64,000 bases of DNA. Source: a phage. Both the position numbers and the translations under genes were made by a program. Where the stretch lies: the sequence record OZ335959.1; one strand, written 5' to 3'. Below the pieces are notes generated by a model. That model did not search any database, was not told the origin of the DNA, and saw only the letters and a program-made list of their open reading frames with translations. Shown here one piece after another: positions 47,233 through 48,299 of the stretch (positions are counted from its first letter, which is position 1; each line of letters starts with the position of its first letter).

Positions 47233-48093
47233 TTATACCGCCATCTTTCCTTTAATTGGCGGGTGAGATTCGTAACCTTTAAGAACGAAATCTTTAGGTC
47301 TAAGTTTAAGAACATATTTTAATTGTTCTTTAGTAGAAAGATATCGAAATTTATAAGGTAGACCACTTATTACCAGCTCACAAAGCTCTTTAGGTTCACG
47401 ACGCAAAATTTCTTTACATTGTTCTACGTGATTCATATAGATATGAGTATTACCACCAGAAAATATCAAATCTCCCGGAATAAGATTACACATCTTAGCT
47501 ACAATATGAACTAATGCAGCATATGATGCAATATTAAATGGAAGACCGAGGAAAACATCTACCGAACGTTGATACCACTGCAAATCCAAATAGCCATTAC
47601 GCACATTAAACTGATAGAACATATGACAAGGTGGTAATGCCATATATTTAAGTTCAGCTGGATTCCATGCAGAAACAATTTGACGCCTATCATTTGGTAG
47701 TTTTTTAATACGATCAACAACTTCTATAATTTGGTCTACACCACCAAAATCGCGCCATTGTTTTCCATAAATTGGACCAAGTTCACCACTATGGTATCCT
47801 AAATCTTTTGCTTGATTTTCGTAATTTTCATCCCAGACTGTTTTGCCTTGAATTAATGAATCATGTTGAATTAATCGCAAATCATTGACATTTGTGCTTC
47901 CCGATAAAAACCATATTAGTTCAGCAATGCAAGCTTTCCAGGCGAGCTTCTTAGTCGTTACTGCAGGAAAACCTTTAGTTAAATCCCAGCGTAATTTAGT
48001 ACCGAACAAAGCAATTGTTCCTGTGCCTGTTCGGTCATCGGTTTCGTAGCCATTTTCTAGGATATCTTTAATTAAAAATTGGTATTGTTTCAT
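47233..48093 (-). CDS. td: Thymidylate synthase, uninterrupted, 286 aa
   Basis: Starts MKQYQ as in T4 TS; continuous reading frame, no intron. Confidence 0.95.
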   Translation of the reverse strand: MKQYQFLIKDILENGYETDDRTGTGTIALFGTKLRWDLTKGFPAVTTKKLAWKACIAELIWFLSGSTNVNDLRLIQHDSLIQGKTVWDENYENQAKDLGYHSGELGPIYGKQWRDFGGVDQIIEVVDRIKKLPNDRRQIVSAWNPAELKYMALPPCHMFYQFNVRNGYLDLQWYQRSVDVFLGLPFNIASYAALVHIVAKMCNLIPGDLIFSGGNTHIYMNHVEQCKEILRREPKELCELVISGLPYKFRYLSTKEQLKYVLKLRPKDFVLKGYESHPPIKGKMAV

Positions 48094-48299
48094 TAGTTCA
48101 TCCAAGAATACGTAGAAGGATATTTGGCAAAGTTAGGCTTATATCCTAATTTAACCATTTGTTTTGCTTTGCGAGTAAATCCTAAAGAACGCTCACCTTT
48201 AAGATATTGTTTTGGTGTCATAGGCCCTTGATGCATCTGCCGACAAATAAAAAGGGCCATAGCATTAGGAACATCCTTAACTTTTAATTTATTGCTCAT
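48093..48299 (-). CDS. Small basic hypothetical protein between frd and td, 68 aa
   Basis: ATGA overlap with frd stop and TAATG overlap with td start. Confidence 0.45.

Follow-up and report, generated by a model that had tools for sequence, protein, structure and literature searches.

We consider a window of 64,000 nucleotides (nt) from the phage record OZ335959.1, the whole stretch of DNA that was analysed, and within it a small open reading frame (ORF) of 68 amino acids (aa) that lies between frd, the gene of dihydrofolate reductase, and td, the gene of thymidylate synthase. All three are on the minus strand, and their coordinates are given in Table 1. The program-made list of ORFs runs both frd and td back to upstream ATG or TTG codons; the true starts, at position 48880 for frd (MIKLVFAYS...) and 48093 for td, are those of annotated homologues in near-identical phages.

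The original prediction described a small basic ORF between the two genes, overlapping both of them, and the sequence and the ORF list bear this out. The computed product has a mass of 7.9 kDa and an isoelectric point (pI) of 10.26, with 13 lysines and arginines against 2 aspartates and glutamates. At its upstream end, the ATG of the ORF (48299-48297) and the stop codon TGA of frd (48298-48296) have the letters TG in common, making ATGA; at its downstream end, one A is common to the stop codon TAA (48095-48093) and the ATG of td (48093-48091), making TAATG. Both junctions thus have the stop/start overlap of coupled cistrons, as is likewise the case in four other genera, and such overlaps are ordinary phage gene packing.

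Table 1. Features of the frd-td interval, in coordinates of the window.
Feature	Coordinates	Strand	Evidence
68-aa ORF, coding sequence (68 codons and TAA)	48093..48299	minus	sequence, ORF list; PHROG 9550 match
frd (dihydrofolate reductase), upstream cistron	48296..48880	minus	ORF list, annotation of near-identical phages, T4 comparison
td (thymidylate synthase), intron-less, 286 aa, downstream cistron	47233..48093	minus	ORF list, annotated homologues, alignment
ATGA, overlap of frd stop and 68-aa ORF start	48296..48299	minus	sequence
TAATG, overlap of 68-aa ORF stop and td start	48091..48095	minus	sequence
GGA in the 3' end of frd, 12 nt upstream of the ATG of the 68-aa ORF	48312..48314	minus	sequence; Shine-Dalgarno role inferred
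GGATG in the Trp66-Met67 codons of the 68-aa ORF, whose GGA, 7 nt before the ATG of td, is Shine-Dalgarno-like	48099..48103	minus	sequence; function inferred

The 68-aa protein matches the profile phrog_9550 over its whole length, residues 1-68 aligning with positions 1-68 of 68 (E-value 1.3e-45, 154.5 bits). A tblastn search with the same protein matched 238 phage records: 135 with an identity of at least 90%, in Tequatrovirus and Dhakavirus; 31 between 60 and 90%, in Klebsiella Marfavirus and relatives, Enterobacter Kanagawavirus CIP9 and Serratia phage 4S; and 72 below 60%, where those sampled belong to Phapecoctavirus, an example being phAPEC8 gp235 at about 43%. An alignment of 22 sequences of the family, with identities down to 38%, has 13 invariant and 10 nearly invariant columns, and its insertions and deletions are exclusively in frame. 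The motifs NK.KV..VP.A, R..HQ, GF and M..LGY.P of PHROG 9550 are kept in independent members, and both the frame and the length of the ORF are kept over five genera of Straboviridae and Phapecoctavirus. The ratio of nonsynonymous to synonymous substitution rates (dN/dS, Nei-Gojobori) lies between 0.08 and 0.28 in all pairs in which dS is not saturated; synonymous sites are saturated in the comparisons with Marfa, CIP9 and 4S. Since the Phapecoctavirus copies are independent cistrons, each with its own AAGGAGG, the conservation is at the level of the protein. Taken with the position of the ORF, these observations lead us to the reading that it is a genuine protein-coding accessory gene of the family PHROG 9550 and, in Tequatrovirus, an internal cistron of the early/middle frd-td transcript for nucleotide metabolism, a reading to which we assign a probability of about 0.75.

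The same data bear on a different view of this DNA, in which the 204 nt would be a non-coding spacer or a regulatory RNA element that tunes the translation of td, the open frame being incidental. Such an element would be well placed, exactly between two coupled genes and carrying the ribosome-binding region of td, and the nucleotide identity of the segment with Dhakavirus phage JS98 is very high. However, the low dN/dS, the saturated synonymous sites and the in-frame indels all speak for a protein, and homologues with 43% amino-acid identity are found where no td follows. The fold of the 204-nt region has no excess of RNA structure (z = -0.02), and the whole window has no match in Rfam. Codon-level conservation effectively refutes this view, which keeps hardly any probability.

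The family was also sought more widely. PHROG 9550 is a phage-restricted family. HMMER, run exhaustively over 1.84 billion representatives, yields only 13 genuine clusters, made of small phage proteins of 55-96 aa and one fragment of 42 aa, and a scan of IMG/VR gives only 10 loci, from which no further context is gained. Two candidates, P0046 and P0047, were discarded as members. They consist of repeated LYIVRFLHQTTT and VVYRPFPTSNHN units and match just the R..HQ motif; they look like translated repeat DNA, possibly from arrays of clustered regularly interspaced short palindromic repeats (CRISPR).

We now turn to the comparison with T4. In T4 (NC_000866), frd occupies 145109..145690 and td ends at 145112, so that the two genes overlap directly by the 4 nt ATGA, as the original prediction had stated, and the alignment of the window with T4 at this junction has one clean gap of exactly 204 nt. 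The flanking genes and their orientation are the same in both phages, as are the 3' end of frd (ACGGAATCAGTrTATAAATGA), the 5' end of td (ATGAAACAATACCAA) and the ATGA overlap after frd, which in T4 serves the start of td. The differences are that nothing lies between the genes in T4, whereas the window has 204 extra nt, that is, 68 aa, and that the T4 td carries a group I intron with I-TevI, whereas the td of the window is one continuous ORF with neither a group I intron nor an I-TevI gene.

The slot between frd and td was then typed in other phages with a query of 600 nt spanning the T4 junction, by the span of the joined matches in 60 records taken at even intervals from the ranked matches. 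Two of these are td-only fragments and uninformative, and the remaining 58 fall into three alleles. The direct overlap of the T4 type is found in 4 of the 58 (about 7%), namely two T4 records, G2133 and JEP6; the records listed with this type of junction are T4 isolates and close kin (T4T, RB55, RB59, vB_EcoM_112, G28, F1, FN, FL12). The allele with 204 additional nt, which holds the 68-aa ORF, is found in 12 records and in roughly 21-26% of Tequatrovirus records. The third allele, with about 416 additional nt, is found in 42 of the sampled records, or roughly 70% of Tequatrovirus records, and carries an unrelated ORF of 115 aa, AR1_242, which is present with at least 90% identity in 363 records and is 100% identical in a T2 record. 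With 363 and 135 of roughly 515 records, AR1_242 and the 68-aa ORF look mutually exclusive in Tequatrovirus. The AR1_242-type ORF (AR1, T2, RB5, RB32, RB68) fills the same slot, but its sequence is not similar to that of the 68-aa protein and it has no stop/start overlaps: spacers of 20 nt and 45 nt flank it.

These counts change the sense of one claim of the original prediction, that an extra gene had been inserted while the overlaps were kept. The gene is indeed absent from T4 and the overlaps are present, but a junction found in 4 of 58 sampled records is a poor baseline. The comparison of junctions across T-even genomes otherwise leaves the prediction standing, the 68-aa ORF being neither in T4 nor in all relatives; so does, at the level of sequence, the overlap of its start with the stop of frd. 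Since an occupied slot is the norm, both in Tequatrovirus and in distant genera, the T4 overlap is most simply read as a derived deletion: the occupied slot is probably ancestral, and the direct overlap of T4 a secondary loss, which would have taken place by deletion between short direct repeats. Such repeats do exist. A direct repeat of 9 nt, TAAATGAAA, stands on both sides of the AR1-type insert (AR1 locus L008 1802-2216), and a deletion between its two copies yields exactly the frd/td ATGA junction of T4 (T4 locus L001 around 6110); the 204-nt insert has the 5-nt repeat AATGA on both sides. The frd/td overlap of T4, which is the textbook case, is an exception among the T4 relatives.

The comparison of the window with Dhakavirus JS98 gives a different picture for the ORF and for its neighbours. 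The nucleotide identity is 86.2% in frd, 98.0% in the ORF and 75.3% in td, and the ORF has 4 nucleotide differences, of which 3 are synonymous. In bins of 50 nt, the final 200 nt of frd reach an identity of 76-84% and the bins of the ORF 96-100%; the first bin of td has 94%, and the rest 66-82%. On the 5' side of the ORF, mismatches start again within 4 nt of the ATG. An ORF that is 98% identical between flanks that are 86% and 75% identical argues for a recent modular exchange, and the trend is the same in the comparison with Marfa (79% in the ORF, 68% in td, 56% in frd). The 68-aa ORF, to judge from these identities, is a discrete module that moves between phage genera. Given the contrast with JS98, the word 'inserted' may be true for the particular lineage of the window. 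The tight edges of the module could result from short-homology crossovers in the conserved 3' end of frd and 5' end of td, or from the microhomology AATGA.

A separate observation concerns frd, which is itself a mosaic in the window: nt 200-400 of the gene (48480-48680, minus strand) are 90-96% identical to JS98 and 56-72% to T4 and AR1, and the segments on both sides are T4/AR1-like, with 92-100% identity.

Sharp boundaries of this kind raise the question of mobile elements, and T-even genomes carry free-standing homing endonucleases at many intergenic sites. The ORF might then be the remnant or the cargo of such an element, for example a free-standing homing endonuclease that has degenerated, or the DNA-binding domain of one. 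In favour of this, the mosaic changes abruptly at the 5' edge of the ORF, the short direct repeats AATGA stand at both ends, and the T4 region is rich in homing endonucleases (segG, I-TevI, mobE). However, no GIY-YIG, HNH or other nuclease domain and no helix-turn-helix (HTH) domain is found in the protein at any threshold, and 68 aa are too few for a catalytic and a DNA-binding domain together. Throughout the family, these 68 aa are conserved whole, with N- and C-termini of their own that are conserved too. The td of the window has no intron, hence no adjacent endonuclease, and a search among the ORFs of the window found no paralogue of the 68-aa ORF. A comparison with the AR1_242 family and with other neighbouring ORFs likewise found no similarity. 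We consider a mobile-element origin very improbable.

In more distant T4-like genera, one to three ORFs lie between frd and td, and it is always the small ORF that adjoins td. In Kanagawavirus CIP9 the order is frd, gp061 (44% identical to AR1_242), gp060 (a paralogue), the small ORF and td; in Marfavirus Marfa and in Serratia phage 4S it is frd, one gene of the AR1_242 superfamily, the small ORF and td. The AR1_242 family thus shares the slot with the small ORF in CIP9, as do more distant relatives of AR1_242 in Marfavirus and 4S. The stop/start overlap with td is found in all Straboviridae examined (five genera: vB_SsoM_113, JS98, Marfa, CIP9 and 4S), in the form TAATG in the window, JS98, Marfa and 4S, and GTGA in CIP9.

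This constancy suggests that the protein might work specifically with thymidylate synthase, as its partner, or regulate the enzyme or its translation (a small subunit, an adaptor of the complex that synthesises deoxynucleoside triphosphates, or a translational regulator), kept overlapped with td for that reason. Whatever lies upstream, the ORF adjoins td with an overlap of 1 or 4 nt in every one of these genomes, and its C-terminal codons hold the Shine-Dalgarno-like GGA of td. The homologues in Phapecoctavirus and in metagenomic phages tell otherwise. The Phapecoctavirus protein phAPEC8 gp235 (YP_007348396, 77 aa) is of the same family, with 43% identity over its full length and both the N-terminal NK.KV..VP.A and the C-terminal LGYKP.Y..Y.S.Y.W motifs. 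It belongs to another phage subfamily, Stephanstirmvirinae, and differs by an insertion of 9 residues between helices 1 and 2; its gene has its own AAGGAGG Shine-Dalgarno sequence and no overlaps, and lies among small hypothetical genes, not beside td. Three distant members (P0039, P0040 and P0042) are found in runs of tightly packed small genes, close to replication or early functions that include RNA ligase, PIF1-type helicase and DnaB, and neither these loci nor that of gp235 has an annotated or Pfam-recognised td; the contigs of two others (P0043 and P0044), of only 745 and 1,345 nt, are too short for their context to be judged. Because the homologues of Phapecoctavirus and of metagenomes sit among unrelated small early genes, the role of the small ORF is probably not td-specific. 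Moreover, about 75% of Tequatrovirus records are without the 68-aa ORF and yet have a near-identical td: the td of the window is, over most of the gene, 90-98% identical per 50-nt bin to those of AR1 and T4, which have no such ORF. There is therefore no sign of co-adaptation, and homologous exchange anchored on the conserved flanks in frd and td explains the fixed position equally well. A dedicated partnership with td seems improbable.

Phapecoctavirus and the T-even phages have a second small ORF in common, with 58-63% amino-acid identity: phAPEC8 gp223 (L003 7407-7679), JS98 orf232 (L005 977-1237) and AR1_247 (L008 22-225). In T-even phages it is located in the region between gene 32 and frd; no copy was detected in the window.

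How the 68-aa ORF might be expressed can be read in part from its two junctions. No promoter-like, MotA-box or terminator-like site was found on the coding strand between frd and td, which suggests that the ORF is an internal cistron of the frd-td message. The GGA in the 3' end of frd, found also 12 nt upstream of td in T4, is a weak and distant Shine-Dalgarno sequence, so that initiation is probably coupled to the termination of frd: ribosomes that finish frd would re-initiate on the ORF at the common ATGA, helped by the same weak GGA as td in T4. At the other end, the GGA that stands 7 nt before the ATG of td implies that the 3' end of the ORF carries the ribosome-binding region of td. The last codons TGG ATG AAC TAA would supply td with a better-spaced GGA and a TAATG restart, and the expression of td would thereby be preserved whichever allele occupies the slot. 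A cassette that brings its own ribosome-binding region and restart for td could explain why td is left undisturbed whether the cassette is there or not.

The AR1-type allele has another arrangement. Its 45-nt spacer between AR1_242 and td (L008 2171-2215) contains TTTAGCTTCA (AGCTTCA), then 10 nt and TATAAT, about 20 nt upstream of the ATG of td. This looks like a MotA box plus -10, that is, a T4 middle promoter, without counterpart in the alleles of the window and T4, and the record of phage Lutter annotates a 'promoter' at the position of this spacer. The regulation of td may differ among the three alleles. The window as a whole has 19 occurrences of the MotA-box-type pattern TGCTTNA-N10-14-TANNNT, where 7.6 are expected; no shuffle reached this count, which is consistent with many middle promoters of the T4 type. 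Going upstream on the coding strand, one first meets such sites at 51712-51736 and 51988-52011.

Four points weigh against the reading of the ORF as an accessory gene and internal cistron, or against parts of it. The support for the ORF is all at the level of sequence. The spacing of 12 nt between the GGA and its ATG is poor for a Shine-Dalgarno sequence. In Straboviridae, the fact that td is always the next gene could reflect a functional link and not positional inheritance. Finally, the polarity according to which T4 has lost the insert is a parsimony argument and not a dated phylogeny.

An AlphaFold2 model of the protein, of moderate confidence (predicted local distance difference test, pLDDT, 74; predicted template modelling score, pTM, 0.49), has an extended basic N-terminus, three helices at residues 13-24, 29-38 and 43-50, and an aromatic C-terminal tail. 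The three-helix model has no significant structural neighbours; Pfam gives no consistent match for the protein and its 22 aligned relatives, NCBIfam and PADLOC give no match for the protein, nor do PDB sequences searched with a profile at E <= 10, and no HTH family is found in Pfam and NCBIfam at permissive thresholds. One segment of 17 residues may be similar to the LGVSRSTIYRLIKEGKLP motif found in HTH proteins of the excisionase/AlpA type, and is a lead only. Of the roles considered, the likeliest, though still less likely than not, is that of a small early protein that binds nucleic acids or modulates the host. This suggestion is drawn from the pI, which exceeds 10, from the basic arm at the N-terminus with three short helices after it, and from the conserved segment LGF(T/S)-R/K...M..LGYKP; it is the charge alone (pI 10.3) that would point to DNA binding.

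The distribution of the ORF invites a more specific conjecture, that of an anti-defence or host-takeover 'moron', kept polymorphic and traded among co-infecting phages. It is patchy within one genus, in about a quarter of the records; its copies are near-identical across genera despite diverged flanks; it is found in an unrelated phage subfamily within a cluster of small early genes; and the Tequatrovirus slot holds mutually exclusive alternative cassettes. In one distant-member locus, a Tad2-like gene lies about 4.3 kb from the homologue, on the opposite strand. However, all these points are circumstantial, the protein has no similarity to described anti-defence proteins in the libraries searched, and the literature searches gave nothing on the ORF. 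This conjecture, which overlaps the reading as an accessory gene and does not exclude it, seems rather unlikely to us. Combined with the exchange between genera, it takes a stronger form: the ORF would be a self-contained cassette, passed between genera and families through recombination, at microhomology or short homology, into the translation-initiation site of td, and would encode a new small DNA- or RNA-binding counter-defence or host-takeover factor. The full combination is quite unlikely. If it were true, the frd-td slot would be an 'allelic' accessory locus, in which the 68-aa ORF and the AR1_242-type ORF are alternative answers to different host pressures.

The existence of the ORF is not new, since the identical protein is already in GenBank and UniRef (AIS73551.1 and others; A0A449C5N9, 'n=17 Tevenvirinae'). 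It was met on 332 contigs, always labelled 'hypothetical', and no paper on it came up in literature searches by family identifier, accession and gene name. A family of hypothetical proteins that includes it is already on record. The label DUF4858, which the identical protein bears in the record of phage Shinka, was not reproduced: no Pfam-A family matches at E <= 10, and DUF4858 is also not among the weak single-member matches of the 22 relatives. Some records deserve attention. The ORF is without annotation in Dhakavirus JS98 (NC_010105; locus L005 3001-3207, 98.5% amino-acid identity) and JS10 (EU863409), which thus show an apparent gap of 200 nt between frd and td, and the GenBank protein record of IME339 has just the last 42 aa of the product. 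These omissions and this truncation are minor annotation errors, worth correcting.

Upstream of frd, the interval between frd.1 and frd (48880-49469, minus strand) is another variable slot. It contains ORFs of 111 aa (49134..49469) and 81 aa (48880..49125), whose homologues in AR1 are AR1_245, with 65% amino-acid identity, and AR1_244, with 98%. T4 has neither, frd.1 being followed directly by frd, and vB_SsoM_113 annotates ORFs at this position too.

A slot with three alleles and a sharply bounded exchange across genera are modestly interesting by-products of this analysis. The frd-td slot is a convenient natural system for asking how T-even phages might swap single small genes and leave the translational coupling of essential neighbours intact, and also for probing the function of a conserved early protein. 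Slots of small ORFs are reportedly subject to modular shuffling in T4-like genomes, as is said to have been described by Comeau in 2007 and Arbiol in 2010. That such slots are plastic, or hypervariable, and lie between conserved genes of T4-like genomes is documented (Petrov 2010, PMC2993671). The frd-td slot resembles them in its conserved core genes on both sides, in a content that varies between close relatives, and in the exchange of this content between genera. It differs in its borders: the shuffling cassettes described for T4-like genomes have early promoters and stem-loops there, whereas the 68-aa cassette has neither promoter nor terminator and only start/stop overlaps and a repeat of 5 nt as its bounds.

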